Source: an uncultured delta proteobacterium | GTDB taxonomy: Bacteria > Desulfobacterota > Desulfobaccia > Desulfobaccales > 0-14-0-80-60-11 | Assembly: GCA_963812015.1 (NCBI GenBank) | Contig: CAWETI010000002.1 | Coordinates: forward strand, 288,001-352,000 | Direction of reading: 5' to 3' | DNA: 64,000 nt | In this document: piece by piece, positions 13,381 to 40,306 of the stretch | Layout: the number at the start of each line of letters is the position of its first letter | Position numbering within the stretch: position 1 is the stretch's first letter | The notes under the pieces: generated by a model | Told to the model about the DNA's origin: nothing | Databases searched by the model: none | Seen by the model: the letters and a program-made list of their open reading frames with translations, nothing else | Position numbers and translations under genes: made by a program

Positions 13381-13389
13381 AAAACGCTC

Positions 13390-14472: not shown

Positions 14473-14520
14473 CTTGCCAAAACAGAAACTTATCGAATTT
14501 CCTCGGAAAATTGTGCTATG
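14473..14520 (+). repeat. Left half of the ~100-bp recurrent site
   Basis: CTTGCCA..TTATC..GAAAATTG..GCTATG matches the left halves at 32425, 37565, 40092 and 21912(-). Confidence 0.65.
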
Positions 14521-14569
14521 CTTTGTCTATCAGCATCAGCCTGATGCCATCAAAGACTGGAGGTGGAGC

Positions 14570-15407
14570 ATGAAAGTTTCTAAGGCCGTCAACCTGTTCC
14601 TGGATTACCACAAGCTGAACTCCCAAAAAAAATACGATCAGGGCCTACGGCTCGCTCTTGGCCAAATTCAGGGAGTATTTTCCTGACCACGACCTGGCTT
14701 CCATATCGCCAGAAAAGGTACTCTCCTTTTTGACCAGTCTCAACGGTAAGTGTAAGCAGCTAACCAAGCATACTCGTTACGCCTATCTCAAGGCTCTCTT
14801 CAACTTCATCCGCAATAATCTGGACGCTCAGCTCCAAAATCCCTGTGACACCCCGATGCTGAAGAAACTCTTTCGGCTGGGGAAGCTGGTGCATTGGCAG
14901 GTCCAGGAAAAGGAGACCATCGACGAGGTCATTTTCAGGACCACCAAAGTAAGAAACCGCCTCATGCTATAACTCATGGCCCGGGGTGGCATGCGGGTAG
15001 GCGAGGTTCTTAAGCTTACTGGCGGGGATGTCGAGGACCAAAAACTCGTAATCAGGAACCCAAAAAGTGGCAAGGAGACGGAGGTCGTCTTCATCCCTAA
15101 GAAGCTGGCCGATAGGCTGAAGGATTACCTCAAGGCCAGAGGCGCTGAAGGAAGCCAGAGAATTTTCCCCATCACCTATACAGCCGCCCGGGTCATGGTC
15201 AAAAAGGCCGGCGCTTTGGTGGGGGTCCATCTCAGGCCACACGACCTAAGGCGGCATGCGGCAACCTATGCCTCGAGATCAGGGGTACCCGTGGAGATTG
15301 TCAGCAAGGTCATTCTGAGGCACGCCAACCTCTCCACCACCCAAAAGTATCTTGGAAAGGTCAGCGATGTGGAAGCGGTGCGGTGGATGGAAAATTTATA
15401 CGGCTAA
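14570..15407 (+). pseudogene. Tyrosine recombinase with an A8 frameshift (14625-14632) and an in-frame TAA (14970-14972)
   Basis: MKVSKAVNLFLDYHKLNSQK joins NTIRAYGSLLAKF in the +1 frame; catalytic GGMR, HDLRR, LRH and TTQKY; GGAGG RBS. Confidence 0.85.
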
Positions 15408-15462
15408 ATGGACGGCAATTAGGGCGAGGTCGAACAAGGCCTCGCCCACATTTAAAAGTCTC

Positions 15463-15519
15463 GCTATGTCCTGGATATGGAAAGTTTTTAGAGCCGTGAT
15501 AAGTGTCGGATCATAGCAG
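15463..15519 (+). repeat. Right half of the ~100-bp recurrent site
   Basis: GCTATGTCCTGGATATGGAAAGTTTTTAGAGCCGTGATAAGTGTCGGATCATAGCAG; near-identical to 40261-40306. Confidence 0.85.
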
Positions 15520-15940
15520 TAACTGACACATTTACTTAACCAATGCGATTCCAAATCTCATGCCTGCCTTTAACCGCCGGGACTGACCTTCCCAATAAAA
15601 GGTGCCGGAACGGCAAGTGTGGGCCGACCCTTTCCCTCAAGTCAGCCAGGGTGAGCTCAGAAAGCCATACCGCATTGATCCTGATTAATTTGCAGAGTTG
15701 CCTTGAAATCAACGTTCCTTTCCGGTTCCTTTCCTTGCCTGGTTTTCGGAGCGGTGGCCTATTCTTGACTCTCGGCCCAGGGGCGCCCGTTAACGGGCGG
15801 GGCAAGGTTTTATGCTGCGACTCCCGGCTTCATAAAGAATTTGCCGTCGCGCCCAGCAGGGCTGAGAATTATCTTGACAGAAGAACCTTTTTCTCATAAT
15901 TCATAATTATAAATTATAAATGCAAGGCGCGTTTGCCGCA

Positions 15941-16630
15941 ATGAGCAGCCGCATCCCCCCCTTAGTCCTTTACCAGGAGGTCGCCGAGCGCCTCCGTCAC
16001 AGGATCTACAGCTACGAACTGAAGCCGGGAGAGTGGATCGACGAACAGGCTCTGGCAGAATCTTTCGGCATCAGCCGAACCCCGCTCCGGGAAGCCCTCA
16101 AGGTTTTGAACAGCGAGGGCCTGGTGGTCCTGAGACCCCGCCGGGGTTGCTTAGTGGCCGAACTGACTGAACAGGACCTGGACGAGATCTTTCCGGTGAT
16201 GGCCCTGTTAGAAGGGCGCTGCGCCTATGACGCGGTGCGCAAGGCCAAGCCCGCCGACCTCAAACGCCTGGATGACATACACGCCAAGCTGGAAAAGTTT
16301 GCCGCAGCCGAAGATATCGATCGCTATTATGAACAAAACTATATCTTCCACGAGCAGGTGCAAAAACTGGCCGGTAACCTCTGGCTCCAGAAGACGGTGG
16401 GCGATTTACGCAAGTTCCTCAAGCTGTTGCGGGGCCGACAACTCAAGCTACCGGGCCGTCTCCTGGCATCTCTCAAAGAACACCGTCTGATCATGGCCGC
16501 TTTTCACAATCAGAATCCCGCCGCGGCCGAAAAAATCATGCACGACCATCTGCTGGCGCAGCGGCAGGCGCTGGCCATATACGATTCCGCCACAGACAGG
16601 GAGAATAAGACCGCAGTGCGTAAGATGTAG
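15941..16630 (+). CDS. GntR/FadR-family regulator (FCD domain)
   Basis: LYQEVAERLR..GISRTPLREAL HTH; TTGACA and tandem TCATAAT repeats upstream (15874-15919). Confidence 0.92.
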   Translation: MSSRIPPLVLYQEVAERLRHRIYSYELKPGEWIDEQALAESFGISRTPLREALKVLNSEGLVVLRPRRGCLVAELTEQDLDEIFPVMALLEGRCAYDAVRKAKPADLKRLDDIHAKLEKFAAAEDIDRYYEQNYIFHEQVQKLAGNLWLQKTVGDLRKFLKLLRGRQLKLPGRLLASLKEHRLIMAAFHNQNPAAAEKIMHDHLLAQRQALAIYDSATDRENKTAVRKM

Positions 16631-16689
16631 CGAGTCAAAAAGGAGGCCCCTTTGATGCTGGGAACACCTCCGGGGCTGGGTACAACAGC

Positions 16690-17162
16690 AAATTGTGTAG
16701 GGGGCGGCCGGCGATTTAGCCTTTAGCTGTGACATTTTGATCGGCACGCACAGCGCCTTCTTCGCCATGACCCCGGCTAAAATCGGGATTCCCTATAGCT
16801 CATCCGGGCTCTTGCACTTCATTTACGGCGTCGGCCTGCCCATTGCCAAGGAAATGTTTTTCACAGCACAGCCGGTGGTGGCAGAGCGCGCCGAGAAGTT
16901 AGGGATTCTCAACCATCCGGTGCCGGAGAAGGAACTGGAAGATTTTACCTATGCAATGGCCCGGCGAATCACGCAAAATTCTCCTTTGAGCATCTCGGCG
17001 ATCAAGGAACAACTCCGGATTCTGGCCGATTCGCCCCCTTTGAGCCCGGGAACTTTTGAACGCATCCAAGGATTGCGCCGGCGGGTTTACGATAGCAAAG
17101 ATTACCTGGAAGGCAAAAACGCCTTCTTGCAGAAAAGGCCCCCGGTCTTTCAAGGAGAATGA
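16690..17162 (+). pseudogene. Crotonase-family (methylmalonyl-CoA decarboxylase-like) C-terminal fragment
   Basis: V*GAAGDLAFSCDILIG..FAMTPAKIGIPY..FERIQGLRRRVYDSKDYLEG; N-terminus missing. Confidence 0.7.
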
Positions 17163-17379
17163 GGACCGGGTTTCTTAGCAAAATATCCGCCCAGGGGAGG
17201 TGAAAAAGAAAACCCGGAAAAGCACGCCATATTTTCAGTCAGTTGAGCAGCGACGGGAGATCAGGGCGGTTCGAGTCCCGAATCAGTCGCTTGACCGAGA
17301 TTGAAGATCCCGGCAGGAAGGTCTCCCGGAAAATTTTCTCCAACGAGCAATCCCTTCTACGTTAAGAGGAGAGGAAAAA

Positions 17380-18585
17380 ATGGAAGAGTTATGGGCGCAA
17401 AGATGGAAAGCGCTGTGGTTCGTTGGTACCCTAGGTTTTATCTTCTCGGCCAACTATACCAACCACGGTCCCTTGATCCCCACCCTGGTCAAACAGCTGG
17501 AGATCACCTTCGCGATGGCGGGGTTCCTGACCACCGCCATTTTCCTGACCCACGGCGCCTTGCAGATACCGGGAGGGGCACTGGCAGATAAATTCGGCGC
17601 CAAAAAACTGGTCAATTTCGCTCTCCTGATCATCACCGCCGGAAATTTCATCATCGGGTTTTCCAACTCCTACTATGCCATTCTGGTATTGAAGTTCATC
17701 ATCGGCATTGGTACCGGCATCTGTTTTATCGCCGGGGCCCGCTACGTCACCACCTTCTTTCTCGGCAAGGAAATTCAGCGGGCCCAGGGGGTTTATGGCG
17801 GGTCGATCCTCTTGGGGTCCGGGTTCGTGATTTACGGCATTCCCCAACTCCTGCCGCTGGTGGGCTGGCACAATATCTTCATGATTACCGGCGGCATGGC
17901 GGGAGTGCTGTTAGTCCTGTGGTACTTCTTTGCCCCGGATACGCCCCGGGCGGTGACCATTCCCAAAATCAACTTTTCTAGCGTTATCGGCAGTCGCAAT
18001 ATCTGGCTGCTCTCTCTGGCGCAGCTGGCCACTTTTGGCGAGATCATTGCCTGCGGCGTCTGGGTCAATACCCTCTTGATCAAGAGCATTCACCTTCAGC
18101 CTAAGTTGGCGGGCATTATTGGCTCGATCGTCTTACTCCTGGGAATTTTCTCTCGTCCGCTGGGCGGCATTATCCTGGATCATAAGATCATGACAACCAA
18201 GAAACTCTTGGCGGTCGCCTGTGCCGGGCTGGCGGTAGGATTCATTTGGATGGGGTTATCTTCCAGTATGGGCATGGCTATCATCGCCATTATCTTTACC
18301 GGCATTATGGCGGGATTGCCCTTCGCCGGGATCTTTAACGCGGCCAGGGATAACTGCCCCCATTGTCCCGGGGTGGCCATGGGATTCGTCAATACCTGGG
18401 GGGCCATCGGGGTCATGATTTTCCCACCCATCATCGGACGGCTGGTGGATGTCACCGGGACGTTTATCAGCGGCTTTTTTGTCCTGGGGGCGGTGGCCGT
18501 CATCGCCGCCTTGGGCTGTTTGGCCCTGACCCACGCCGACATCTATATGATCCCGGAGACCAAGCCCATCGTGCAGCCGGATTAA
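17380..18585 (+). CDS. MFS transporter
   Basis: About 12 TM segments; GGALADKFGAK motif A. Confidence 0.92.
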   Translation: MEELWAQRWKALWFVGTLGFIFSANYTNHGPLIPTLVKQLEITFAMAGFLTTAIFLTHGALQIPGGALADKFGAKKLVNFALLIITAGNFIIGFSNSYYAILVLKFIIGIGTGICFIAGARYVTTFFLGKEIQRAQGVYGGSILLGSGFVIYGIPQLLPLVGWHNIFMITGGMAGVLLVLWYFFAPDTPRAVTIPKINFSSVIGSRNIWLLSLAQLATFGEIIACGVWVNTLLIKSIHLQPKLAGIIGSIVLLLGIFSRPLGGIILDHKIMTTKKLLAVACAGLAVGFIWMGLSSSMGMAIIAIIFTGIMAGLPFAGIFNAARDNCPHCPGVAMGFVNTWGAIGVMIFPPIIGRLVDVTGTFISGFFVLGAVAVIAALGCLALTHADIYMIPETKPIVQPD

Positions 18586-18650
18586 TTTCGAGTGGGAAGA
18601 TTAGCGGCAACCGGCCTTAGCCGCAGAAGAAGTGGTGACGGAGCAAGAGC

Positions 18651-19295
18651 ATGGATACCCCCCAGATCCTCTACCGGGAAAAGCTGGCCGAACACCTGAT
18701 CAAGCACCTGACCAAGCGCCGGATGGAGGCCAGCTATGCGCCCACGGCGGCACAGGCCAGAGAAGAGATTATTGCCATGATTCCAGCTGGTTCCACGGTA
18801 AGCCGGTGCGGCTCCATGTCCCTGGTGGAGATGGGGTTGTGGGATAAGCTGGCCCAAAAGCCCGGCGTAGAAATAATCGATCCCTTTACCCCGGGGCTTA
18901 GTCCCGAAGAGGCTTATGCCCGGTTGCGCCAGGGGTTATTGGCTGATTACATGCTTGCCAGCTCCAATGCCCTGACCATGGACGGAAAACTGGTCAATTT
19001 GGACGCTACGGGTAACCGGGTGGCGGCCATGTGCTTTGGTCCGGAAAAGGTCATCCTGGCCGTCGGCCTTAACAAAGTAACCCCTGATTTAGATTCCGCC
19101 ATGGCCCGAGTTAAACACCAGGCGGCGCCGATCAATGCCATGCGCCTCAATCGGGCTACACCTTGCGCGGAAACCGGCCAATGTCTCGATTGCAGAAGTC
19201 CTGCCAGGCTCTGTAATATGTGGTCGATTATCGAGGGGCACCGCTTTGAGAATCGTATCCACGTCAAACTGGTGGGCGAAGACTTGGGGTATTGA
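18651..19295 (+). CDS. LUD-domain (lactate-utilisation family) protein
   Basis: SSNALTMDGKLVNLDATGNRVAA and CAETGQCLDCRSPARLC. Confidence 0.85.
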   Translation: MDTPQILYREKLAEHLIKHLTKRRMEASYAPTAAQAREEIIAMIPAGSTVSRCGSMSLVEMGLWDKLAQKPGVEIIDPFTPGLSPEEAYARLRQGLLADYMLASSNALTMDGKLVNLDATGNRVAAMCFGPEKVILAVGLNKVTPDLDSAMARVKHQAAPINAMRLNRATPCAETGQCLDCRSPARLCNMWSIIEGHRFENRIHVKLVGEDLGY

Positions 19296-19412
19296 GGTTC
19301 CGGGAACCGGCCTCCGTAACTGCGGGAACCTGCCTGGTTAAGATTGAGGAGGTTGCGACGTCTAGGCCGCACTCCTCGGAGATGAAAAATTTTTGGTGAT
19401 TGTGGAGGCGTC

Positions 19413-20909
19413 ATGTCGATACTTCTGGTTCCGCGAGCCGAACAATATTCGGACCGGACTGCAATTATAGGGCCGGAAGGGAGGTTCACCTACCGGCAAC
19501 TTCTGGACGCGTCCGGCAAGGTCACGTCTTTTCTCTTGAACGGGGCGCCGGATTTGCAGGAGAGACCGGTGGCTTTTCTGGTGCCGCCGGGGTTCCACTA
19601 CGTGGCGGTGCAGTGGGCGATATGGCGCGCCGGAGGGATTGCGGTGCCTTTGTCCCTTTTCCATCCACGGCCAGAATTGGAATACGTGCTTGATGACACC
19701 CAGCCTGCGGCAGTAGTAGCTCATCCGGATTTTGTCAATCTGCTCGGTCCCATTGCCGAGGCGCGTGGCCTGAGATTCGCTCAGACCACCGAGGCGTTGA
19801 ACCATCCCGCGGGTCAACTCCCGGTGGTGGCGCCGGAGCGGCGGGCCATGATCCTCTACACGAGCGGCACCACGGGCAAGCCCAAGGGAGTGGTGACGAC
19901 TCATGAGAACATCGCCGCCCAGATTACCAGCCTGGTCCAGGCCTGGGGATGGACCGGGTATGATCGGATCGTAGAATTTTTGCCGTTGCATCATATCCAC
20001 GGGATCGTGAATGTCATCTCCTGCGCCCTTTGGGTAGGGGCGGTGTGCGAGATTTCCCCCCGGTTCGATGCCGGGGAGGTCTGGAATCGCATCGCTCGGG
20101 GCGGCCTGACGCTGTTCATGGCTGTGCCCACCATCTATGTGAAGCTCATCGACGCCTGGGAGAAGGCTTCTCCTGCCGACCGGAAACGGATGTCTGACGG
20201 CTGCGCCCAGATGCGGCTTATGGTGTCTGGTTCCGCAGCTTTGCCGGTCCCTACCCTGGAAAGGTGGAAGGAGATCTCCGGACACGTCCTCCTGGAGAGA
20301 TACGGGATGACCGAGATCGGCATGGGTCTTTCCAACGCCCTGCATGGGCAGCGATTCCCTGGATGCGTCGGGACGCCCCTTCCGGGTGTGGAAGCGAAGT
20401 TGGTGGATGAATCAGGTCATCCGGTTGAACCTGGAACTCCGGGGGAGATTGTGGTGCGGGGCAAAACGGTCTTTCTGGAGTACTGGCGCAGACCGGAAGA
20501 GACTAAAAAAGGGTTCAGGGACGGTTGGTTCTTAACCGGTGACGTTGCCGTGGTGGAAAACGGCGTCTATCGCATTCTGGGGCGCAGCAGCGTGGACATC
20601 ATCAAGACCGGCGGGTACAAGGTCTCGGCCCTGGAAATCGAGGAAGCTCTATTGACCCACCCGGACATCAAGGAAGTCGCAGTGGTGGGGGTGCCGGACC
20701 CGGTCTGGGGCGAACGGGTCGTCGCAGCGGTGGTGTTGCGGGATGGCGCGACCCTGACCACCAAGTCCCTGCGCGCCTGGGGCAAAGAGCGGCTCGCCTC
20801 CTACAAGGTTCCCCAAGAGGCCGTCGTGCTAGAGGAATTGCCCCGTAATGCCATGGGCAAGTGCTCTAAACCCGACTTGAAGAAAATTGTTGGGGGCGTG
20901 CATGGGTAG
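19413..20909 (+). CDS. Acyl-CoA synthetase, malonyl-CoA synthetase (MatB/ACSF3)-like
   Basis: YTSGTTGKPKG, LERYGMTEIGM, IIKTGGYKVSALEIE and LPRNAMGK. Confidence 0.85.
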   Translation: MSILLVPRAEQYSDRTAIIGPEGRFTYRQLLDASGKVTSFLLNGAPDLQERPVAFLVPPGFHYVAVQWAIWRAGGIAVPLSLFHPRPELEYVLDDTQPAAVVAHPDFVNLLGPIAEARGLRFAQTTEALNHPAGQLPVVAPERRAMILYTSGTTGKPKGVVTTHENIAAQITSLVQAWGWTGYDRIVEFLPLHHIHGIVNVISCALWVGAVCEISPRFDAGEVWNRIARGGLTLFMAVPTIYVKLIDAWEKASPADRKRMSDGCAQMRLMVSGSAALPVPTLERWKEISGHVLLERYGMTEIGMGLSNALHGQRFPGCVGTPLPGVEAKLVDESGHPVEPGTPGEIVVRGKTVFLEYWRRPEETKKGFRDGWFLTGDVAVVENGVYRILGRSSVDIIKTGGYKVSALEIEEALLTHPDIKEVAVVGVPDPVWGERVVAAVVLRDGATLTTKSLRAWGKERLASYKVPQEAVVLEELPRNAMGKCSKPDLKKIVGGVHG

Positions 20910-21694
20910 CTTCGTCTGGGCGCAATTCATTGCGCCCAGACGGGCGTGATAAATCACGCCCCTACAACAAAATTACCTGTTTGACGGCAACTTGGTATAA
21001 GGGAGTCAAAGAAGAAAAGTGGTTTGTTAAGGGAGGGGGCCGATCTCCCAGCTCCCTCCCCTGACTCCTCATGGGTAGTGGGAGATTTCCATCCCCTCAA
21101 CCCTTCATATTTTGAGATGTCCCATAGAAACTACTGGGGCAGTTAACCAGGAACGAAGAAAATCCAGATAACTTGCCTCTATACGCCCTTTCGCTAATTT
21201 TTCCATATCGTTCGTATATAGGAACCCTTGTAAATAACGTTTGGATTGGTAATCCTCCCGAAAAATCGGAAATTTTCCGGGGCAGTCATATTGACTGGGA
21301 GCAGTAGGCATTGAGGAATCGGCACGGGTGCCGCCGTCCTTACCCTGGCCGACCTCGCCCGCTGGGAGCATTTCCAGCAATAACTCCCCCCAACCTTGGA
21401 CTAACCCCTTGGTCGAAGCGTGAACACGCTGTAAAAAGCGTATCACGCTTTTTTAGGGCCTATCTAAGGATGAGGAAGGGCCATAATCCGGCCGGGTCAG
21501 ATGACCCCACGGACGCGGTTGCGACCCCCAAACCAGACGGATTTTTTCTCTAAAATTTTTCCCGTGGGTCTTATAAGGGGGGGGTGCCACCACAGGGGGA
21601 AGCCATCGCAGATGAAAAAATTCTCTACCCTTCCTTAACCATTAACCAGCGATATTTTTGAAAAAATTTGTGTACCAGCCTTTGAATCACAGAG

Positions 21695-21747
21695 GGGGGT
21701 ATGGGACCCGTCCCGGGGTTTGGTTTCCGGGCCGAAAATCTATATGG
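21695..21747 (+). repeat. Direct repeat, copy 1 (second copy ~23140-23182)
   Basis: GGGGGTATGGGACCCGTCCCGGGGTTT..GGGCCGAAAA in both places. Confidence 0.75.
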
Positions 21748-21813
21748 CCTTGACGAAACCCCAGAGCCGGGGCCATCGGGTAGCGCAGGCTATAGGCCAG
21801 GGCACAAAAATGA

Positions 21814-21912
21814 CCGCTGTGATCCACTATTTATACCAAGCCAAAAACTTCCCATATTCAGATCATATCCGCAATTTCCCCTGACTTCGAGATAAGTGTC
21901 GAGTTTGGCAAG
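21814..21912 (-). repeat. Full copy of the ~100-bp recurrent site (inverted)
   Basis: Reverse complement reads CTTGCCA..TTATC..GAAATTGCGGATATGATCTGAATATGGGAAGTTTTTGG..GGATCACAGCGG. Confidence 0.8.
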
Positions 21913-21950
21913 TGATCAGCTATCATCTTTAGCCCGGGAATGGGTAAGTC

Positions 21951-22163
21951 CATATTGATTGTTCAGTCGCCGGCATTGCCCATAACAAGGTGATAATCGT
22001 CGACATGGAGGTGGTGATCACTGGGAGTTTTAATTTTACTCGGTCTGCTGAAGAGAGCAATGCTGAGAATTTATTGATTATCCGGGATAAGGAGCTGGCC
22101 AGGGAATATTTGGAGAATTGGGAGAGGCACAGGGGGCATTCTGAGGGATATATGAGGAGGTAA
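21951..22163 (+). pseudogene. Phospholipase D/Nuc-type endonuclease C-terminal fragment (not in the ORF track)
   Basis: Manual translation IAHNKVIIVDMEVVITGSFNFTRSAEESNAENLLII, i.e. HxKxxxxD..GSxN; in-frame stop just upstream. Confidence 0.75.
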
Positions 22164-22448
22164 GGAAATCAGGGGTTTGCGGGGAAAACTGGTTTTTTGA
22201 TGGATCTTGTGCTAACATGCCGCTTACTAAACAACTTGAGGTTACTTAATTTTAAACATTGTGGGAAGATCATGGATTCAGTAGAACACAACGGTTTCGT
22301 CCAGGAATGGAAAACATTTCTCGCAAACATCGAAGAAGTTGGAAAAAGGAAGCTACGTGGGCGATACGGCAACGCATAGGAGCGTTCTGGAGCATAACAG
22401 CCAACAGTAAGGCCAGGCACCTTCTGCACGTTTAAGGAGGAGCAACAC

Positions 22449-29526: not shown

Positions 29527-29563
29527 GAGTCTCCTACGCAGCCTTCGAGAACTAACCCCTTAT

Positions 29564-30814
29564 TTAAGGAGATCCTTTAATGCCCATCTTTATTTTGGAG
29601 AAATTGATCCTTCGTGATTGTAAATCTTCATTGAAATTAAAGCCTTTCTCCCTAAATAATGTCAAACATGTGTTTACTACTTCGGAGTCATAAAGAATGC
29701 CCTTCTGTTCATAAATTTCGTCCAGAGCCTTATCGATGCTTTGGGGCGGACCATACGGCCGGTCGCAAATCATGGCTTCCAACACGTCAGCCACCCCCAA
29801 GATCTTGGCTTCCGGGATAATATCCGCCGCAGTCAGGCCGGCGGGATAACCCGAACCATCCAATCTCTCATGATGTTGCAAAATGGTCTGCTGCACAAGC
29901 CAGGGGAAATCGATATTCTCCAAGAGCTCAAATCCCACCTGGCAATGAGATCTGATAAACTCACCTTCCAAGTTACTGAGCACTCCCGGCTTGCTCAGGA
30001 TTTCTGTAGGTACGGCGATCTTGCCGATATCGTGAAGCAAAGCGGCAATCTTAATTCCTTCCAGCTGGTTAAGGGAAAAACCCATCTCTCGGGCTATAGC
30101 GACCGCCAGCTGCGCCACCCGCTTCTGGTGCCCCGCGGTTTGCAGGTATTTCATCTCCACCGCATAGGCAAAGGCTTCGGCTAAACTGTATAGGCAGCTT
30201 CTTAGCCGGCTGGGCATCGACTTCAGGTTCTCTTCTTCTGCCGTGCGCTCTCGGGCCTCCCGTAGCAACCACAGCAGCCTCACCGGCTCATCATGTTGGT
30301 CCGTTTGAGCTCTAACATTGGCGAACAGCGAGAATGGGGCGTCATCCCCAGGTTGGAATTGCAATTCCCAGTTCCGTTTCTCTCCTCCCGTCTGTACTTC
30401 GGTCAGGCTGGCCCGGAAGGCCGGGCGATCTGGTCCCGAAATCAAAAGGGCCAAGGGCGTATTTTTCAGGATATTCTGGCTCATCCTCAGCATGGCTGCG
30501 GCGGCCTGGTTGCTCTCCTGAATAATAGTTTGGGGATCAGTTACCAGATAAGCATCGGAAGCAAAATCGAAGAAGTCCCGACAACGCCGGTATTCGACAT
30601 CCGGAGCTCTTGACGCGGGCGATAGATTGGCCTCTGCCTGGATATCAGCCTCTCCCACTGCGGCTTGGAGAGTTTGCAACAATTGTGAGATGTCGTGCAT
30701 CAATTTGTTGAGGAGAGGTGCCAACTGCATGAAAAAACCGGCTTCGGGTGCCGCCTTAGTTTCGGACATCATGTCGGATCCTGCACAACCATCAATGGTG
30801 AGAGAGTGATACAA
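29564..30814 (-). CDS. PAS + HD-GYP c-di-GMP phosphodiesterase
   Basis: LLHDIGK and HHERLDGSGYP; start codon uncertain. Confidence 0.9.
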   Translation of the reverse strand: MYHSLTIDGCAGSDMMSETKAAPEAGFFMQLAPLLNKLMHDISQLLQTLQAAVGEADIQAEANLSPASRAPDVEYRRCRDFFDFASDAYLVTDPQTIIQESNQAAAAMLRMSQNILKNTPLALLISGPDRPAFRASLTEVQTGGEKRNWELQFQPGDDAPFSLFANVRAQTDQHDEPVRLLWLLREARERTAEEENLKSMPSRLRSCLYSLAEAFAYAVEMKYLQTAGHQKRVAQLAVAIAREMGFSLNQLEGIKIAALLHDIGKIAVPTEILSKPGVLSNLEGEFIRSHCQVGFELLENIDFPWLVQQTILQHHERLDGSGYPAGLTAADIIPEAKILGVADVLEAMICDRPYGPPQSIDKALDEIYEQKGILYDSEVVNTCLTLFREKGFNFNEDLQSRRINFSKIKMGIKGSP

Positions 30815-30988: not shown

Positions 30989-31795
30989 TTAGTTATGGGT
31001 CGCTTTGGTGCTGAAGTCTTGCCCACCTATATGACGTAACTTTCGCACTATCTCCTCAGTCTTCTCAGGCTTGTCTTCCCGGATAATAAACTGATTCTTT
31101 CCCAACTTTTTGACCTCATATAACGCCTGGTCTACCCTTTTGATAAAGCTGTCGATGGTGTCTCCTGGTTGATACGCGGACACACCGAAACTGGCAGTTA
31201 CCCTGATAATGGAGTCAGGGAAGGTTATCTCCTCCAAACGATGCAGGAGACGCTCACCGAAAACGGTTGCTTCCTTTCCGCTGGTGCCTGGGAGCATCAT
31301 AATAAATTCATCTCCGCCCCAGCGCGCGATCAAGTCCTCCTGCCGGCTGTTTTCCATCAAGAGAGTGGCAACAGCCTGGAGCACTTGGTCCCCCGCATTA
31401 TGACCAAAAGTATCGTTGACGGACTTAAAGCCGTCTAAGTCGGCCATGATGATGCAAACGGGAGCCTGGTGCCTCTGGGCAAAGGAGATGGCGTGCTCCA
31501 GGCTCTCCAGGAAGATGCGCCGGTTGGCGATGCCAGTCAACGGATCAGTGCACATCAAAGCAATGATGCGGTTATGAACTCCCCGCAGGCGGTTGAAACA
31601 AAAAATAATTCCTCCAAGGCCCAGAAGCCACAAGAGACCATGCCCGCACCAGAGGTCCAATGCAGTCTCCGGCCGCTGCTGTGCCAGGTTCCACCAAAGA
31701 GATAACGCCACCACAGCGGTCCACATGGCCAGGAGCGCCCAGGCATAGCAATTGAGGCGGGAGACCTCCCTACAGCGGGCAATGTGCTGATCCAT
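30989..31795 (-). CDS. Membrane GGDEF diguanylate cyclase
   Basis: Two TM segments, DPLTG, FKSVNDTFGH, RQED I-site and RWGGDEF. Confidence 0.92.
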   Translation of the reverse strand: MDQHIARCREVSRLNCYAWALLAMWTAVVALSLWWNLAQQRPETALDLWCGHGLLWLLGLGGIIFCFNRLRGVHNRIIALMCTDPLTGIANRRIFLESLEHAISFAQRHQAPVCIIMADLDGFKSVNDTFGHNAGDQVLQAVATLLMENSRQEDLIARWGGDEFIMMLPGTSGKEATVFGERLLHRLEEITFPDSIIRVTASFGVSAYQPGDTIDSFIKRVDQALYEVKKLGKNQFIIREDKPEKTEEIVRKLRHIGGQDFSTKATHN

Positions 31796-31995: not shown

Positions 31996-32039
31996 TAAAA
32001 AGCCGGGTTGCCTGTGCTTCACTTGCAGGCAACCCGGCT
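31996..32039 (-). terminator. Intrinsic terminator overlapping the riboswitch 3' strand
   Basis: AGCCGGGTTGCCTG...CAGGCAACCCGGCT followed by TTTT. Confidence 0.85.
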
Positions 32040-32102
32040 ATCTCCTGCTCAGAGATCCGTGGCTTTCCGTCCCCAGCTCACACTGGGTTTGGCTTTATCT
32101 GT
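32025..32102 (-). promoter_or_regulatory. c-di-GMP-I (GEMM) riboswitch
   Basis: AAAGCCAAACCCAGT-GTGA-GCTGGGGACGGAAAGCCACGGATC..GATAGCCGGGTTGCC fits the GEMM-I consensus. Confidence 0.9.
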
Positions 32103-34049: not shown

Positions 34050-34058
34050 CTTGGAACC

Positions 34059-34583
34059 TCATTTGGGGTCAACCGTGAAACGACAGACCCTCCCCCCGGT
34101 GCCCCAGCAGTCGACTTCCTTAACGTGGAAGTCCTTCCCCGAATAGGCGAGCAGGAGGCCCGCAATAAATCCTTCATCATAAGTGCAGATCTCCTCCGAG
34201 CACACTGGGATCCCCGAGCAATCAAGATCCTCTGCCACAGTTACTACGAAAGAGCCCTTTTCGTAATCGGCCGATTCGACGCGGAAGATCCCAATGCCGA
34301 GTTCCTTCATCGTGCGCTGGAGATCGGCAAACAGGCCATCCAAGTCCTTATGCTCGGTAAGGATGTTTTTGCAATACTCTTCACCGGCTTTCTTACCAGC
34401 CTCGAAAATAATCCGGTCGGTCTTCTCAACCCCAAATTCCCGGATGAGGAGGTCGCGCAGCGTGAACTGCATCAGGCGGTAAACAGCCACGTGCACCATG
34501 GGGCCGAGATTCGGCCGCCCTTTTTCGATATCGCCCAACATGCTCCATTCGAATTGGCTTTCTTCCCGTTCTTCTTTGAACAT
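34059..34583 (-). CDS. V4R-domain protein
   Basis: EDLDCSG..CTYDEGFIAG..EVDCWGTGGRVCRF. Confidence 0.88.
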   Translation of the reverse strand: MFKEEREESQFEWSMLGDIEKGRPNLGPMVHVAVYRLMQFTLRDLLIREFGVEKTDRIIFEAGKKAGEEYCKNILTEHKDLDGLFADLQRTMKELGIGIFRVESADYEKGSFVVTVAEDLDCSGIPVCSEEICTYDEGFIAGLLLAYSGKDFHVKEVDCWGTGGRVCRFTVDPK

Positions 34584-34706
34584 GTGCTTACTCTCCTCCC
34601 TACGAGATCATAACTATTGATGCCTCGGCGTTTATGTTCTTCCTGGCCTGCCCATTACTATCCTCCCCAGGAATCCGAGACATTGCGGCTCCTCTAAATT
34701 TAAGGT

Positions 34707-34750
34707 TATGGGAGCTTTTTGGCTCTGTGATAAGTTTCGGATCATAGCAG
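34707..34750 (+). repeat. Right half of the recurrent site
   Basis: TATGGGAGCTTTTTGGCTCTGTGATAAGTTTCGGATCATAGCAG. Confidence 0.8.
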
Positions 34751-34761
34751 AACTCTTCTAC

Positions 34762-37386
34762 TTACCCATCCCCGTGCAAGATTAGGCCCGACCAGAAATA
34801 TGGATGAGGTTCCTTGGCCCGCACTGCCTGGCGGGCGACCTTTAATGCCTCAATCTTGGGCTTCCCCTCCTTTAGGGCCTTATAAAAGGTCTCATAAAAC
34901 TTCATGGACTCATCCACCGGGATGTTCCACAGGGCCACCATGACGCTGCGGGCCCCGGCCTGTTGGAAGGCCCGGGCGAAATTCAGCACCCCTTCCCCCT
35001 GCATCACCTGGCCTACCCCGGTCATGCAGGCGGCCAGAGTCACCAGATCCGCATCCAGTTTCAACTGCAACACCTTGCTGAAAGTCAGGAACCCGTCATC
35101 CGGTGGTTTATTTTCTACTTGAGTCAGGACCAGCGTGGGCTCTCGCACCCCGGCAATCTTATCCGCTAAAAACCCGTGGGTGCCGAAGAAGAGATAGCGA
35201 TATTGGCCCAGGCTAGTCTGCCGCACTTTTGTTTCCGTGGCGAAGACATCCAGGAGCACCTGGGGAGGCTGGGGCTTTTCCTGGAAGAGGGCGGCCAGTT
35301 CCAGCACGGTCTGGCGAGTCTCCGGCAGCGGCGGAAACTCCAGCCGCCCCCACCCCTTGTCGGTGGCCGCCATAGTCATAGCCTTTTCCGGCCCCGCACC
35401 CCGGAGTTCCCCCGCCTTCTCCTTGCCTGCCTTATAGGCCAGATAGCGGCTGTTATCCTTGGTGTAGATGCAGTCCCCCAGGGCAAAGAGGGGCTGACCG
35501 GCTTTGGAAGAACCCAAAACCCGGTTCAAGACTAGAATAGCAGCGGACTGAAAATAGGTGACAGGCCAGCGGTCTCCCACCAGGGTGCTTTTGTCCCAGC
35601 CGGCGCCGGCCTGCACCACCAGAGCCTCAAAGGGGAAGGCTCCCAGGGCGCCATCGGGAACGATGATCAGTTTGGTGCCAGGATTCACCCCGACCAGTGC
35701 CGGGGCCAGGATCTCCTGATACAAGGAGGCCGCCTCGCTCACTGAAAAACGGGATAAATCCTCGCGCCGCAAGACGCTTTTCCGAAAAGGCGCCAGCATG
35801 GCCCCCAGGCGCTTTTCCAGGGCCTCCTGCCCCAAAGCCAGCCGGAACACCTGGGTCTTGCCCCCGGGTTCCACCCGGAAAAGATAACTGTCCTTATCAC
35901 CCAGGGCGTACTCCAGCAGCACCTCCCCCGGCTTCAGGGGCAGCTCCTGGGCCTTATACGGTTGGGGATAGGCTAGCGCCGCATACCGGGGTTCCCGGTG
36001 GCGCAGTTCCGTAACCAAGCTATCCATCTCCCGTTGCAAGGCTTCCCTATGGAGTTGGAAATCCTGGGCCGGCTGATCCTTCCGATCCCCTCTTCCCCCC
36101 TTTGACATTATCCGTTCTGCCCTTTGGGCTTCCAGGGTCTGCAAGCGCTCCTGGAGATTTTTCTCCTTAGCCGCCAACTCCGGGGGCAATTGGGGGGCCA
36201 CCCGCGCCGCCCCGGCGGCAAGGGCCTCCAGCAAAGAACGGGCCTTGATTGCTTCAGCAAAATAAAAGGCCGCAGCAGAGAGATCCGGTCCATAAGCTTG
36301 CAAGCCCGCAGGAGCAGGATCGCCTTTCTGGGCCATCTCCGCCAGTAAACCTGTCATACCCTGATAGGCGCGAAAATAGCCACCCAGAACCCCCGACTCG
36401 AAGAAGCTGGTGCGTTCCCCTGAGGTGAGGGCCCGCAACCCTTCGATATTCTTGATGGCCTGCATGAAAGCGGCAGACGCCTCTCCCCGGCTCCCCAACC
36501 CCTGGAGCGCCAACCCTTTTTGCGTATAATAAAGCGCCTGGACTTGGGGGGGGGTCCATGCCAAGGGGACGAGATGAGAGGTTAAGAGGTTCAGGGCTGA
36601 TGCATACTGCCTGGTGGCCAGATAAAGTTCCACCATACCGCGGTGTCCCTCTGGGGGTTGAGCCCGGAGGAAAGTGGATTCGGCCTGGTTATAATCTTTC
36701 TTGACCAGATAGATAAATCCCAGAGTCGTGAGACTGCGTGCGGTCTGTCGGTTTTCTAGTCCTAATGCCTTTTCATTGATCTGCGCGGCGCGTCGGGCCA
36801 AGGGCAGAGCCTGGTCATAGGAACCCTCCTGGCAATAAAGGATCGCTAGATTGTACAAGGCGGACGCAGTCTGCCGGTCTTCCGGCCCCAACGCCTTTTC
36901 GCTGATCCGTAAACCTTGCTGGATCATGAGCAACGCCTTTTCCCGGGCTCCCATCTGTCCATAAAGGTACCCCAGGATTATCTGGCTCTGGGCGGTTTGG
37001 GAGTGTTCGGGCCCCAGGACCTTCTCATTGAGCTGGAAGGCTTTATGGGCCAGGGGCAGAGCCTGATCGAAGAAACCGAGAATAGAGTATAATCTTGCCA
37101 AATGTGCCATACACTTGGCGGTGAGCGGATCTTCTGGTCCCAAGGCCCTCTCGCTGAGACTCAGGGCCTGCTTGTAAGTATTCAGGGCGGTAATGCCAAG
37201 ACCAGCATCCACATCAGCCCAGGCCTTTTTCAGTAATTCCTTGACTTCGGCCGCCTCCGGCTTTTGGCCGGCTACTGGCATCTCCATACCTAAAGTTGAC
37301 TGGGGACTCTTCTTGGCGGCATAGCCGTATGTTCCAAATAAGCCAAAGAGCAAGAGGCAGAAGCAAACAGAGATGAGTCTGACCAT
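34762..37386 (-). CDS. Exported TPR + CHAT (caspase-like) protein
   Basis: Signal peptide, LGPEH/LGPED TPR repeats, IVPDG, THG, LAAC and HPYFWSG. Confidence 0.9.
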   Translation of the reverse strand: MVRLISVCFCLLLFGLFGTYGYAAKKSPQSTLGMEMPVAGQKPEAAEVKELLKKAWADVDAGLGITALNTYKQALSLSERALGPEDPLTAKCMAHLARLYSILGFFDQALPLAHKAFQLNEKVLGPEHSQTAQSQIILGYLYGQMGAREKALLMIQQGLRISEKALGPEDRQTASALYNLAILYCQEGSYDQALPLARRAAQINEKALGLENRQTARSLTTLGFIYLVKKDYNQAESTFLRAQPPEGHRGMVELYLATRQYASALNLLTSHLVPLAWTPPQVQALYYTQKGLALQGLGSRGEASAAFMQAIKNIEGLRALTSGERTSFFESGVLGGYFRAYQGMTGLLAEMAQKGDPAPAGLQAYGPDLSAAAFYFAEAIKARSLLEALAAGAARVAPQLPPELAAKEKNLQERLQTLEAQRAERIMSKGGRGDRKDQPAQDFQLHREALQREMDSLVTELRHREPRYAALAYPQPYKAQELPLKPGEVLLEYALGDKDSYLFRVEPGGKTQVFRLALGQEALEKRLGAMLAPFRKSVLRREDLSRFSVSEAASLYQEILAPALVGVNPGTKLIIVPDGALGAFPFEALVVQAGAGWDKSTLVGDRWPVTYFQSAAILVLNRVLGSSKAGQPLFALGDCIYTKDNSRYLAYKAGKEKAGELRGAGPEKAMTMAATDKGWGRLEFPPLPETRQTVLELAALFQEKPQPPQVLLDVFATETKVRQTSLGQYRYLFFGTHGFLADKIAGVREPTLVLTQVENKPPDDGFLTFSKVLQLKLDADLVTLAACMTGVGQVMQGEGVLNFARAFQQAGARSVMVALWNIPVDESMKFYETFYKALKEGKPKIEALKVARQAVRAKEPHPYFWSGLILHGDG

Positions 37387-37564
37387 ATTATCCTCCCCTG
37401 ACCCTGCTAAGGGAAAATCCGAGGCTTAGCTAATGGCGTGCCGTGGCTTGGAGGCGGAAGCAAAGATATATAGGTCCATTCACCAACTTCTGAAATTCAC
37501 ATTGCCACGAGGAGGTAGGATTGTCAAGAAATGGACCTTTGGTCAAGGTTCCTTGGCTCACCAT

Positions 37565-37664
37565 CTTGCCAGCCCCTGCAGTTATCATCGGGCCGGTAGA
37601 AATTATACATATGGTCTGGATATGGAAGGTTTTTGGCTTCGTGATAATTTTTGGATCATAGCAG
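37565..37664 (+). repeat. Full copy of the recurrent site
   Basis: CTTGCCA..GTTATC..GAAATTATACATATGGTCTGGATATGGAAGGTTTTTGG..GTGATAATTTTTGGATCATAGCAG. Confidence 0.85.
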
Positions 37665-37754
37665 TAACCGCCACTATTCACTCCGCTTAGCCGATCGAGC
37701 ACTTGATCAAAAATGCACTCAGGTTTTCAACGAACGGATTTGGTATGTATCTAG

Positions 37755-38912
37755 TTATAGAAAAAGTTCCTGTATCACTTGGAGGCCACCAATCAAGGCC
37801 AGCAGACCGATAAGATTTGGAGGAGACATCCCACCCAGAGCGCCAAGCACCAACACCGCGGCAGCACCTCCGAAGCGGAAGACCAGGCGAGTTTTCTGAA
37901 TCTTTCTCCGGCTGACGTCAATAATGAGTTGGATACAGCCGATGGATAGTAAAACCAAGGCTGCTGCTCCGCAACTGAGCCAGCGCTCTCCCGCCGGCAA
38001 GGCCAGGTCCTGAGGGCTGGCTACCGCATACTGTACGCCCACGGCGCCGGCCGCCAGACCGATGACCAGGGGGAGATGGGCGTAAAGCCAGCCCTGGTAA
38101 AGCCAGATGCGCCCCTTGGCCCGGGCGACGCGTATGGCGGCGCCGTCAATATTGTCAAAATAGGCCCACCAGAAGGTGAAGGCGAGGCTCAACCCCAACG
38201 CCGCGGTAAGTCCGGACTGGATACTCCAGGCGTGTTTCGTTAAACCCATCACAACCCCCGCGATTGCCTCTCCCAGCACGAAGAGGATAAAGGAGGCGAA
38301 GCGTTCAGGCAGGTGGGCGGCGTGAGGTGCCAATCGAGAGTGGAGTTTTTCCCCGGCCGTCAGAGGGGTGGCGAAATCAATCAGGAGACCGAATCCCCAC
38401 AGGTAAAAACGGAATGGCGTCGGGACCCAGGCCGACACCAACCAGATGGTCGCAGCCGCGCCGAAGCCCAGACCATAGCGTTTCGTCAAGGAGCGGGCGA
38501 CAGGCACCCAGACATGGGCGCCCAGGTATTCTCCCACCAGGATGAAGCGCACCGCGGCATACGAGAGGGCGAAGCCGGCTGAAGCGTGGCCCAAACCGGC
38601 ATGAACATTCACCGCCATGGCTGCGACCGCAAACATCTGGGCGATGATGAACAGGCGTTGTCCCAGATCGTCGGTGTCAAACCGGTCGGCATAAAAGGAC
38701 TGGCCTACCCAGGCCCACCAGACCGGGACGCACAAAAAGGCGAAACCGAGGACTCCGGGGACGGAAAGGCCCTGACTGAGCCCAAAAGTCAATTGGGCCA
38801 CCACCGAGGCAAAGAGCAGGTCATAAAAAAGCTCTAGCCAGGTGGCGTGCCGTTCTTCTTCCGCCCCCTCACCGATGCGCAGCCGCGGCGGTTTCCACAC
38901 TATTTTTTTCAT
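37755..38912 (-). CDS. Low temperature requirement protein A (LtrA) family
   Basis: ATWLELFYDL, WWAW and HLPERF. Confidence 0.9.
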   Translation of the reverse strand: MKKIVWKPPRLRIGEGAEEERHATWLELFYDLLFASVVAQLTFGLSQGLSVPGVLGFAFLCVPVWWAWVGQSFYADRFDTDDLGQRLFIIAQMFAVAAMAVNVHAGLGHASAGFALSYAAVRFILVGEYLGAHVWVPVARSLTKRYGLGFGAAATIWLVSAWVPTPFRFYLWGFGLLIDFATPLTAGEKLHSRLAPHAAHLPERFASFILFVLGEAIAGVVMGLTKHAWSIQSGLTAALGLSLAFTFWWAYFDNIDGAAIRVARAKGRIWLYQGWLYAHLPLVIGLAAGAVGVQYAVASPQDLALPAGERWLSCGAAALVLLSIGCIQLIIDVSRRKIQKTRLVFRFGGAAAVLVLGALGGMSPPNLIGLLALIGGLQVIQELFL

Positions 38913-38947
38913 ATCGGATCAGATCGTTGGCCCAAGCCGCTCTTGGC

Positions 38948-39862
38948 TCATCTCTTGGCGTGTTTGATGAAAATGCCCTCCTGATATTCCTTGAACGCCT
39001 GTTGCAATTCTTCCTGTGTATTCATAACGATAGGACCATACCACGCTACGGGTTCGCCAATGGGCTGGCCCGAGATCAGGAGAAACCGCACCGGGCTGGC
39101 AGGAGCAAAGACTGCCACCTCATCGCCCTCCCCGTAATGGATAATGGTCCGATTGCCGCAGACACACCGGCGGTCAAAATCAAAATAGTTAGACCCTATG
39201 ACTTCATGCGCATAGGCATCCCGCTCGGGGTCGAAATAGCCTTCCCCCTCTATGACGTAGGCAAAGGCCGTATGGCCCCGCCGGATTGGATGATGGAACT
39301 CGGCTCCAGCCGGCACCAAGACATCGAGGTATTCCGGGTCCGTGACAATATCCTTGACCGGTCCCCGAGTTCCGTTAACTTGCCCGCAAATGATCTTCAC
39401 CTTGACGCCCTGAGTTAAAGAGACCTCGGGAATCTGGGCGGCCTTCACGTCCCGGTAGCGGGGTTCCATCATCTTGCGGGAGGCCGGAAGATTGGCCCAG
39501 AGCTGGAAGCCGTACATGCGACCTCGGGTATCCCCCTTGGGCATCTCCTGGTGGATGATTCCGCTGCCTGCCGTCATCCACTGCACGTCTCCCGGGGTGA
39601 TTACCCCCTTGTTGCCCATGCTGTCGCCATGTTCCACTTCTCCAGCCAGGATGTAGGTAATCGTTTCAATCCCCCGGTGTGGATGCCAAGGAAAACCCTT
39701 TAGATAGTCGGTGGGATCATCCCCGCGAAAATCGTCCAGGAGGAGAAAAGGGTCGAATTGGGGCACTTGGTCGTACCCGAAGGCCCGCCGGAGGCGGACC
39801 CCAGCGCCTTCCATTGTGGCCCTGCTTTGCCACACCTTGTTAATTTTTCTTATCTTGGCCAT
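38948..39862 (-). CDS. Pirin family protein
   Basis: DPFLLLD, HPHRGIETIT and MTAGSGIIHQE. Confidence 0.95.
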   Translation of the reverse strand: MAKIRKINKVWQSRATMEGAGVRLRRAFGYDQVPQFDPFLLLDDFRGDDPTDYLKGFPWHPHRGIETITYILAGEVEHGDSMGNKGVITPGDVQWMTAGSGIIHQEMPKGDTRGRMYGFQLWANLPASRKMMEPRYRDVKAAQIPEVSLTQGVKVKIICGQVNGTRGPVKDIVTDPEYLDVLVPAGAEFHHPIRRGHTAFAYVIEGEGYFDPERDAYAHEVIGSNYFDFDRRCVCGNRTIIHYGEGDEVAVFAPASPVRFLLISGQPIGEPVAWYGPIVMNTQEELQQAFKEYQEGIFIKHAKR

Positions 39863-40091
39863 GGATATCCCTCTGGTTGATACCGCTTGACATGCTTGCG
39901 GAGAAAGTTGTGCATCAGGTCGGTTATCTAACCGCCATCATTCTGCTCGAGCGGTCGTAGGTGATTAGTCTGCGAGATTACCCACCTCAATTGACACCCG
40001 GTTCCTCCAAACAATCGATCTGTCTTTAAGTTAAGATGGCCAAGGACATGGGTCAACTCACCCATTATTTAGGCGAAGACACGGTCGATAT

Positions 40092-40306
40092 CTTGCCAGA
40101 TCATGCAGTTATCATCGGACGGGCAGAATTTATAGATATGATCCGCATATCATATGGGGGCAACAGTGGGGAGGAAGATTTCAGATGTCGGTGATGGGGA
40201 AACGCCAGTTTACCGGCGGGAATGGCAGGAATCCTTCAGGCCAAAAAGGCTTGATATCCTCTGGATATGTAAAGTTTTTAGAGCCGTGATAAGTGTCGGA
40301 TCATAG
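40092..40306 (+). repeat. Recurrent site split by ~110 bp (left half 40092-40150, right half ~40254-40306)
   Basis: Left half matches the 37565 copy; right half matches the 15471 copy. Confidence 0.8.

Follow-up and report, generated by a model that had tools for sequence, protein, structure and literature searches.

Why does a tyrosine recombinase gene lie between the two halves of a repeated ~100-bp site, and does its product collect the genes found between further copies of that site? The question is raised by a window of 64,000 nt, the whole stretch of DNA analysed here, which covers positions 288,001-352,000 of contig CAWETI010000002.1 from an uncultured delta proteobacterium (genome G000, 3.96 Mb). 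An initial annotation of this DNA took the arrangement for an integron-like cassette system, in which the recombinase gene had entered the core of a pre-existing site. Our analysis favors another answer. The repeat family is probably a small insertion-sequence-like element, moved by an Xer-like tyrosine recombinase, with gene-less and cargo-carrying derivatives. The best-supported reading of the gene-bearing window copy is that of a dead full-length member, and of the other window copies that of derivatives. The features concerned are given below. Coordinates refer to the window unless prefixed by a contig; C2 and C3 are contigs of the host genome, G numbers are genomes of relatives and L numbers are fetched loci.

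14473-15519 (+): full-length element, made of left end, recombinase gene and right end; ~10 semi-conserved bases lie beyond it, to ~15529
14473-14531 (+): left end with CTTGCCA terminus, CTTATC box and core site 1, from an alignment of 20 elements and the left-half profile
14473-14520 (+): left half abutting the recombinase gene, with GCTATG at 14515-14520
14570-14632 (+): start of the recombinase open reading frame (ORF) at MKVSKAVNLFLDYHKLNSQKK, 21 codons with the FLxY helix of the core-binding domain; A8 run at 14625-14632
14634-15407 (+): main frame of the recombinase, +1 relative to the start ORF (Pfam Phage_integrase, 3.9e-21)
15463-15519 (+): core site 2 (GCTAT-GTCCTGG-ATATG) and right end AAAGTTTTT..GTGATAAGT..CGGATCATAGCAG, with GCTATG at 15463-15468
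21814-21912 (-): short gene-less copy with decayed right end (GGTATAAAT..GGATCACAGCGG), profile score 95 bits
32425-32525 (+): short gene-less copy, 3' of an adenylate cyclase / V4R gene pair, profile score 100.6 bits
34704-34750 (+): right half alone, beginning at the right arm of the core, from profile searches
37565-37664 (+): short gene-less copy, 3' of LtrA / pirin genes, from a profile search
40092-40309 (+): long gene-less copy, made of left half, conserved remnant of ~135 bp and right half, from an alignment of 11 long copies

Inspection of the sequence finds every copy on which the initial annotation was built: three full short copies, a right half, a split copy and the recombinase copy. 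GCTATG is indeed duplicated at both gene junctions, and counted by hand, the stretch that begins with the first C of CTTGCC and closes with the G of TATG spans 48-50 bp in five of five copies. The core motif has nine matches at ≤3 mismatches, against 1.6 expected, and none of 100 shuffles reaches nine. A strict right-end pattern with a single N has zero matches because the spacing varies by one base. The profile search proposed at the outset places the repeat beyond chance: a model from the three full copies has 63 matches at E≤0.1 across the 3.96-Mb genome, and half-site profiles at E<0.01 have 57 left-half and 36 right-half matches, amounting to 66-67 units once merged. All but one of the 67 units are intergenic, against a crude coding fraction of 0.83, and those between co-directional genes are antisense in 28 cases and sense in 8. 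Unit orientation shows no steady tie to replication direction, as it agrees with local GC skew in only 31 of 72 matches. A near-twin variant of the copy at 21814-21912 is present in the relative G047.

The gene-bearing copy as a mobile unit

Related loci were fetched from species-representative genomes (36 loci from Desulfobaccales, Syntrophobacterales and metagenome-assembled genomes (MAGs) named 'delta proteobacterium') and from metagenomes (80 loci). Homology with the window copy starts at C2:302469-302473 and ends at ~303520 (window 14469/14473 to ~15520). In 30 or more loci of other genomes it sets in at the CTTGCCA terminus, which is also the invariable starting point of homology among the related loci themselves. 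In type A loci, homology with the window copy runs up to CATAGCAG. The flanks of the related loci map to scattered places in the host genome or nowhere. Furthermore, contigs of three unrelated metagenome runs (peat, soil and freshwater sediment) span only 14469-15540, with loose contig ends at 14472 and 15519-15523. Such sharp ends and unrelated flanks indicate that the two ends and the gene between them are mobilised as a whole, in the manner of an insertion sequence. The idea that the gene was inserted into a pre-existing host site has to be given up, since left half, gene and right half travel as one unit of ~1.05 kb. In addition, the left halves adjoining recombinase genes form their own conserved subfamily (GAAACTTATCGAATTTCC..GAAAATTGTGATATGCTCTGTATATCAGCATC, 20 elements aligned), which would be unexpected if a gene circle had dropped into arbitrary diverged sites. 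The most fitting reading of the 100-bp 'site' is that it consists of the two ends of the ~1.05-kb element, joined at the core.

The proposal that recombinase and sites belong together is borne out across 115 loci: 57 have a left half at a constant spacing 5' of the gene and 33 have a right half 3' of it, in a permissive count (nhmmer, E≤10) that includes weak matches. Nearly all loci with recognisable halves have an enzyme more than ~70% identical to that of the window. Two traits of insertion sequences are thus observed, an enzyme gene within conserved ends whose flanks are unrelated across genomes, and gene-less copies that share both ends with the full element in the aligned forms. At E≤1e-3 the recombinase family numbers 5007 proteins; among the 120 best matches, many come from contigs of only 1-1.4 kb, as is usual for a multi-copy element at which assemblies break. 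Metagenome depth in the right-half bin is up to 20 times that of the gene (572 against ~25 in run X5), pointing to many gene-less copies, and an X5 contig in which 1004 bases are skipped proves to be a short copy from another place. In the host genome, two gene-less units share 99% identity across 102 bp and have unrelated DNA on either side; the majority of the ~66 units there are old and diverged.

The enzyme has two domains, with Pfam PF00589 at 3.9e-21 and an N-terminal SAM-like domain slightly under its cut-off. Its closest solved chains are XerA 4a8e (8.6e-16) and 5hxy, followed by XerD, and no IntI chain is found among the Protein Data Bank matches at E≤1e-5. Aligned to XerA 4a8e, the segments GMRVGE, KSGKE, PHDLRRH and LRHANLSTTQRY fall on the catalytic R, K, HxxR, H and Y motifs, the naming of these residues following the general family pattern R..K..HxxR..H/W..Y. 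The catalytic motif of the tyrosine recombinase superfamily is accordingly present. The best NCBIfam model is XerA_Arch with 115 bits, under its cut-off of 220. XerC (56.6 bits, cut-off 335) and XerD (55.5 bits, cut-off 330) fall far short, and with the two integron integrase models the protein reaches 43.5 bits against a cut-off of 265 and 25.4 bits against one of 435. No Pfam family other than the Phage_integrase kind exceeds its curated cut-off, HEPN_AbiA_CTD reaching 20.3 bits against 27. The recombinase is single-copy in the host genome, where other recombinases are 25-30% identical and no close paralogue exists.

Reading the two frames as one gives a fused protein of ~279 aa. The frame change at the A run was initially regarded as a defect in need of repair; it is common to most relatives. 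A survey of 109 sequences, including the window copy, contains 96 with a recognisable N-terminal ORF, nine with none and four that are too short. The frame changes at the A run in 85 of the 96 loci, 72 of which need +1 (A6-A9) and 13 need -1 (A7-A8). The other 11 are in frame, mostly without an A run (e.g. ..SRDNTLRA), which implies that the fused protein is the functional one. A change recurring in so many loci looks like programmed slippage. RNA polymerase slippage on the A run after codon ~21 would most likely make the full protein, and it is favored because one mechanism serves both +1 and -1 members. Transcriptional slippage is used by transposase genes of insertion sequences, as parts of PMC1088944 describe. 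Due to the frame change, close relatives are recorded in databases as proteins of 249 aa, so the enzyme is routinely mis-called.

The sole lesion of the window copy is TAA at 14970-14972, where relatives have GAA. Position 14970 is G in all three other metagenome runs, and in the probable source run a minority contig also carries G, at 2.9 of 6.4 depth. The window gene copy is, as judged from this in-frame TAA, dead.

Forms of the unit and a possible mechanism

Six forms are found in the genome: short (~100 bp), long (~235 bp), left halves, right halves, a variant short form and one gene-bearing copy. Every form has the left end, CTTGCCA .. CTTATC .. AAATTGC-GATATGATCTG, or the right end, which reads GGATATGG-AAGTTTTTGG .. 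GTGATAAGT .. CGGATCATAGCAG; in complete units both are present. The blocks CTTGCCA, TTATC, GATATGATCTGGATATGG, AAGTTTTTGG, GTGATAAGT and CATAGCAG are kept in sequence. The long form has a conserved ~135-bp segment between its halves in the 11 copies aligned. Left halves stop directly past the palindromic core GATAT-N7-ATATC, often followed by GAAATGGGG, and right halves begin at the core, while the variant short form has a different right half that terminates in AATAGCAG. Core site 1 reads GCTAT-GCTTTGT-CTATC in the window copy and GATAT-GCTCTGT-ATATC in intact relatives.

In the long and gene-bearing forms the central segment lies between direct core repeats (GATATG.TCTG ... GATATG.TCTG-GATATGG). 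The right edge of the long-form remnant resembles the 3' junction of the recombinase insert, and the remnant at 40092-40309 is bordered by the direct repeat GATATG(A/C)TC. Removal of the gene between the two direct cores yields the short site exactly; the statement that excision would rebuild a site is literally true. This central slot can be empty or hold the 135-bp remnant, the recombinase, a DUF116 gene or a small ORF. In the relative G008, a left half and core are followed by a DUF116 gene of 276 aa, which joins the right half through AAAAGTCTCGCTATGTCCTGGATATGG, the junction also present in the window gene copy; the LtrA block comes next. At C3:449405-449843 of the host genome, the halves enclose an ORF of 76 aa that has a ribosome-binding site of its own and carries a lipoprotein-like signal.

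From these forms a mechanism can be proposed. The autonomous form would be ~1.05 kb long and consist of a ~60-bp left end, the gene, a directly oriented core site 2 and a ~55-bp right end ending in CATAGCAG, its cores being GATAT-N7-ATATC (site 1) and GATAT-N7-ATATG (site 2). The 235-bp form would keep a remnant of the insert, and the 100-bp form would be the product of recombination or deletion between the two direct cores. The recombinase may cut at the GATAT-N7-ATAT(C/G) core and/or at the ATAGCAG-NTAW terminus. Gene-less copies keep the presumed binding boxes and would be open to its action in trans. Recombination between co-oriented units, or integration of a circle at a unit, would build co-oriented arrays, and the same activity could swap the contents of the central slot or the neighbours of a unit.

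The distribution of gene and repeat was surveyed in 60 genomes of relatives (recombinase at E≤1e-40, repeat at E≤1e-4), where repeats are often unassembled in MAGs. Gene and repeat occur together in 14 genomes; 2 have just the gene, 15 just the repeat, and 29 lack both. The suggested co-occurrence is seen, as the repeat is present in 14 of 16 gene-bearing genomes and in 15 of 44 without the gene, the genomes being kin and not independent. With the host included, 17 of 61 genomes carry the gene, in 1-2 copies each that are often truncated or interrupted by stops, and a recombinase match occurs in 7 of 17 congeners. The window copy is 97% identical to that of G039, which is placed in another genus, and ≤94% identical to those of the 7 matching congeners; a higher identity across genera than with congeners fits horizontal spread.

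Borders, arrays and competing explanations

A number of observations weigh against a small insertion-sequence-like element, and they concern its borders, its age profile and the arrangement of its copies. The proposed cutting sites are drawn from sequence alone. Comparison of 15 complete units by eye gives no target-site duplication, and among congeners and related loci there is no locus with the unit missing and both flanks conserved. The flanks of the full window copy have no counterpart in the 17 congeners, and at C2:1624000-1637000 conserved blocks stop at the units with the opposite flank never conserved. The left flank and the right end share a loose motif, ATAGCRG-NTAW, whose presence on both borders fits site-specific integration better than classical transposition and may reflect integration via a short shared stretch. 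Of the close recombinase loci, about half are without the standard right end (type B). Past site 2 they have a conserved stretch of ~1.3 kb, with hairpin-rich non-coding DNA and a 230-aa ORF that belongs to no Pfam family (e.g. L005:3843-5081, L007:3835-5074 and 15 or more metagenome loci), and their upstream flanks differ. The right boundary is therefore not always CATAGCAG, and type B may be a longer, cargo-carrying version. As to age, only the one gene-less pair described above looks recent; other pairs are below 88-95% identity or share flanks, and most copies are <88% alike.

The motif ATAGCRGNTAW has 31 genome occurrences against ~17 expected from base composition. Its 'free' copies were considered as empty targets and discarded, most being ends of further repeat subfamilies. 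Further short repeats, for example at C2:317354, C2:1366264(-), C3:1428367(-) and C3:344816, have ..CATATCAGCAAG.. or ..ATATCAAATAA.. at their start and ATATAGCAGATAT at their end, and probably form extra subfamilies sharing the ATAGCAG terminus.

Two other kinds of sequence adjoin the units. One is an IS3-family element of ~1.27 kb with an rve integrase core, present in at least 5 copies:

window 13346-13694; C2:616783-618050; C2:441450-442719; C2:1179648-1180914; C3:1017909-1019175; L025:1541-2808: IS3-family element

Its terminal ~64 bp abut the CTTGCCA of a unit at the same position in at least 4 places (..aaaagtttctagaa|CTTGCCA), and it also abuts the recombinase element in L006, L021 and L025, as if one element preferred the edge of the other as its target. 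The other is a terminator-like hairpin (GGCAGGGTCAGCCATGGCCCTGCC, then a T run) located ~20-30 bp 5' of the left terminus of several units (C3:1012273+, C2:797581+, C3:882262+ and C2:465620+), which may be a further repeat module or a preferred target.

The arrangement of the copies is the remaining difficulty for an insertion-sequence-like element. In the host genome, 30 of 64 adjacent unit pairs are <6 kb apart, where 6.2 would be expected under a uniform distribution, and all 30 are co-oriented, for which random insertion of miniature inverted-repeat transposable elements (MITEs) gives no account. The units of such close pairs are usually separated by 1-4 crude ORFs. The complete genome G047, whose recombinase is intact, has 8 co-oriented units in 10 kb (~1-kb spacing). 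Most of its intervals hold a single unrelated gene, on either strand, coding for an alpha/beta hydrolase (esterase), zinc-ribbon/SH3, SDR, CBS or PEP-CTERM proteins or being ORFs without a Pfam match, and several of its units terminate exactly past the core. In the window array at 32.4-40.3 kb a unit closes each interval, first cyclase and V4R, then a CHAT/TPR protein, then LtrA and pirin. These modules (cyclase with V4R, CHAT, LtrA, pirin) are scattered across other places in congeners.

All this would be expected of an integron-like gene-capture system, in which the unit is primarily an attachment site, circles of gene plus site, or of gene plus core alone, integrate and excise at the TATG core, the recombinase is itself a cassette and the units spread with cassettes and not by their own transposition. 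The varied occupants of the central slot between direct core repeats and the half units that end or start at the core would also agree with it. The synteny breaks, which the initial annotation expected at the TATG core, give a divided result. Three of three conserved right-half blocks do begin there, with the far side of the core unrelated in every comparison. In the first, G016 against window 32469, the junction of the G016 cyclase block carries a 5'-truncated recombinase and a right end. In the second, C2:1630707-1634800 is 94% identical to C3:1000704-1004798, one unit being short and the other long, with left halves from different subfamilies. In the third, L159:4209 of G008 against window 37610, the right half with the LtrA block starts at the TATG core. 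Two duplicated blocks, however, end at the outer ATAGCAG terminus. One of them is a 1.5-kb duplicate, 99.7% identical (C2:790333-791848 = C3:1010659-1012174), which starts at this terminus and not at the core, and the far ends of this duplicate and of the 4.1-kb block both lack a site. Similarly, in G008 a block that abuts a unit in the host genome has only the 7-base terminus motif, followed by unrelated DNA.

Several further observations make gene capture, as the whole explanation, unlikely. The cyclase and V4R module is found in 10 relatives' loci, each with a different neighbourhood and a unit at the border in one of them, so it moves or persists without a site. The sharp-ended full unit and a gene-less unit that looks recently copied indicate that the units themselves are mobile. 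Genes within the arrays occur in either orientation and seem self-sufficient, a platform of resident integrase, attI and promoter is lacking (promoters were not searched), and the recombinase is absent from 15 unit-bearing genomes. Co-oriented arrays, half sites ending at the core, alternative slot genes and core-bounded homology are nevertheless suggestive of gene shuffling at the sites. The simplest route to the co-orientation, the half sites and the variety in the slot would be recombination among units or circle integration, as an activity of the mobile element. In its most far-reaching form, this would be a second, independent gene-cassette system, with an Xer-like recombinase carried inside its own ~100-bp site and circles integrated and excised at the GATAT-N7-ATAT(C/G) core. 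It would build accessory-gene arrays in Desulfobaccales and Syntrophobacterales without the integron integrase clade, attC folds or a platform. We put this forward tentatively, as conceivable if doubtful.

Two observations were made around the arrays. A 4.06-kb inverted duplicate, 99.9% identical (C2:292294-296356, window 4294-8356, = C2:806004-810066), ties the window to the unit array at C2:783-843 kb. A 196-aa ORF with only an integrase catalytic domain (C3:1472623-1473213; L158:2124-2714, -) lies beside a C5 cytosine methylase, ~4 kb from the first unit of the array at C3:1477 kb, and a 78%-identical stretch is found ~4 kb from the recombinase element of G047. The ORF was considered and set aside, as nothing links it to the units.

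It is highly improbable that the family is a domesticated pair of the REPIN-RAYT type, in which a mostly vertical, single-copy recombinase would maintain repeats that serve the host as terminators or in RNA stability or nucleoid organisation. The numbers would allow it, with 1-2 gene copies per genome against tens of repeats, the intergenic position and antisense excess of the units, and a downstream neighbourhood that type B loci share across several MAGs and metagenomes. But the gene is patchy among congeners, often damaged and dead in the host genome, its 97% identity across genera points to horizontal transfer, upstream flanks vary even among type B loci, and the enzyme is of the lambda-integrase type and not HUH Y1.

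A structured non-coding RNA or folded single-strand DNA site of the attC kind, kept for its hairpins TATGATCCG/CGGATCATA and TTATC/GATAA, is hardly credible: the inverted repeats are real and 10 of 11 positions can pair in some copies, but in others the TATGATCCG/CGGATCATA hairpin is weakened or lost, no Rfam family reaches gathering scores in the window copies or in 7 related loci (the type B stretch included), the RNAalifold consensus of 15 distinct short copies reaches -4.8 kcal/mol with 10 pairs, none of them backed by a compensatory change, and leaves that hairpin out, and the conserved blocks are kept as sequence while the variable ones change without visible compensation. Boxes conserved in this manner fit protein-binding sites better than a folded attC-like strand.

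Neighbouring features and comparison with known systems

Apart from the units, the window contains a c-di-GMP-I-GGC riboswitch at 32024-32102 (-), with 66.4 bits against a gathering score of 59. It is located upstream of a GGDEF diguanylate cyclase gene (30989-31795), followed by an HD-GYP-type HD/PAS protein (29564-30814), and this position would place a cyclic di-GMP-sensing leader on a cyclic di-GMP synthase. A tRNA gene at 46813-46886 (-) (Rfam, 64.4 bits) adjoins no unit.

To our knowledge, compact bacterial elements moved by a lambda-integrase-type tyrosine recombinase, with MITE-like and cargo derivatives, are absent from the known insertion sequence families. In a non-exhaustive search, no title or abstract was found to describe such a compact bacterial element; recombinases 'of insertion sequences' are mentioned in broad terms by the abstract of 10.1101/542381. 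The family is abundant in sediment, peat and soil metagenomes, where it breaks assemblies at ~1 kb. One small enzyme and a 100-bp site make a simple system, directly testable for site-specific integration and excision. If the array-building reading is true, it would represent a route of gene-cassette assembly that evolved apart from integrons.

Integrons resemble the present system in that a tyrosine recombinase is linked to co-oriented arrays of ~100-bp sites, with one or few unrelated accessory genes between the sites and half sites that break at a short core. Co-oriented sites that separate unrelated genes are indeed found here, with genes in mixed orientation, whereas in most integron arrays the genes share one orientation. 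The defining parts differ. Integrons have an IntI enzyme, sites conserved in structure with R''/R' and an attI/Pc platform; here the recombinase gene sits within a site and the array genes face both ways. Scores far under the model cut-offs exclude the enzyme from the integron integrases, and IntI enzymes are ~40-60 aa longer than the fused protein. An attC site is variable in sequence with a conserved imperfect palindrome R''-L''...L'-R' and a GTTRRRY core. Against this layout, as generally known, the units are conserved in sequence and show no covariation. In place of a platform, the recombinase lies inside a unit and arrays occur without a nearby recombinase (promoters were not searched). 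The label of an integron-like system, having no IntI-type enzyme, no attI/Pc platform within that limit and no attC-like site, is therefore not retained, and the comparison with integrons concerns a possible way of working and not membership.

The enzyme is closest to XerA and XerD, and the core with two short inverted arms and a ~7-bp spacer recalls dif. On the other side, its scores are far under the cut-offs of the Xer equivalogs (XerA 115 against 220), there are tens of sites (~66) instead of one dif, the site of ~100 bp has extra boxes and the enzyme is encoded inside the element, so that a Xer dimer resolvase with its dif site is not what is found. That the sites are neither attC nor dif, as initially noted, holds: they are conserved in sequence and number ~66 per genome. 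The same comparison extends to the Xer-exploiting pdif modules and integrative mobile elements exploiting Xer (IMEX).

Tycheposons are, in the parts of 10.1101/2020.12.28.424599 relevant here, likewise tyrosine-recombinase elements with cargo that integrate repeatedly at one kind of site, with site and integrase remnants dispersed over variable islands. They differ in targeting tRNA genes, in a length of several kb and in having replication modules; the units here measure 100-235 bp, the 1-kb element brings its own site and tRNA genes play no part. REPIN-RAYT systems, according to parts of PMC3116915 and PMC5581495, share a low-copy 'tyrosine' enzyme gene flanked by the repeat it is thought to disperse and many short intergenic copies. 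RAYTs are HUH Y1 enzymes acting on single-strand hairpins. By Pfam our enzyme is not of the HUH/Y1 (IS200-like) kind: it has a lambda-integrase fold, and its patchy distribution and signs of horizontal transfer set it apart as well.

The closest likeness is to insertion sequences with derivatives of the MITE or mobile insertion cassette (MIC) type. An enzyme gene between conserved ends, sharp boundaries and unrelated flanks, few full and many gene-less copies, and a passenger gene in place of the enzyme are common to both, and an A-run frame change gates expression in insertion sequences too, as parts of PMC1088944 report. Unlike in those elements, the ends are not mutual inverted repeats and no target-site duplication was found in the units compared. 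The enzyme is a tyrosine recombinase of the Xer/XerA kind instead of a DDE, HUH or serine enzyme, and its gene lies between two directly repeated core-type sites in a family whose units form co-oriented arrays.

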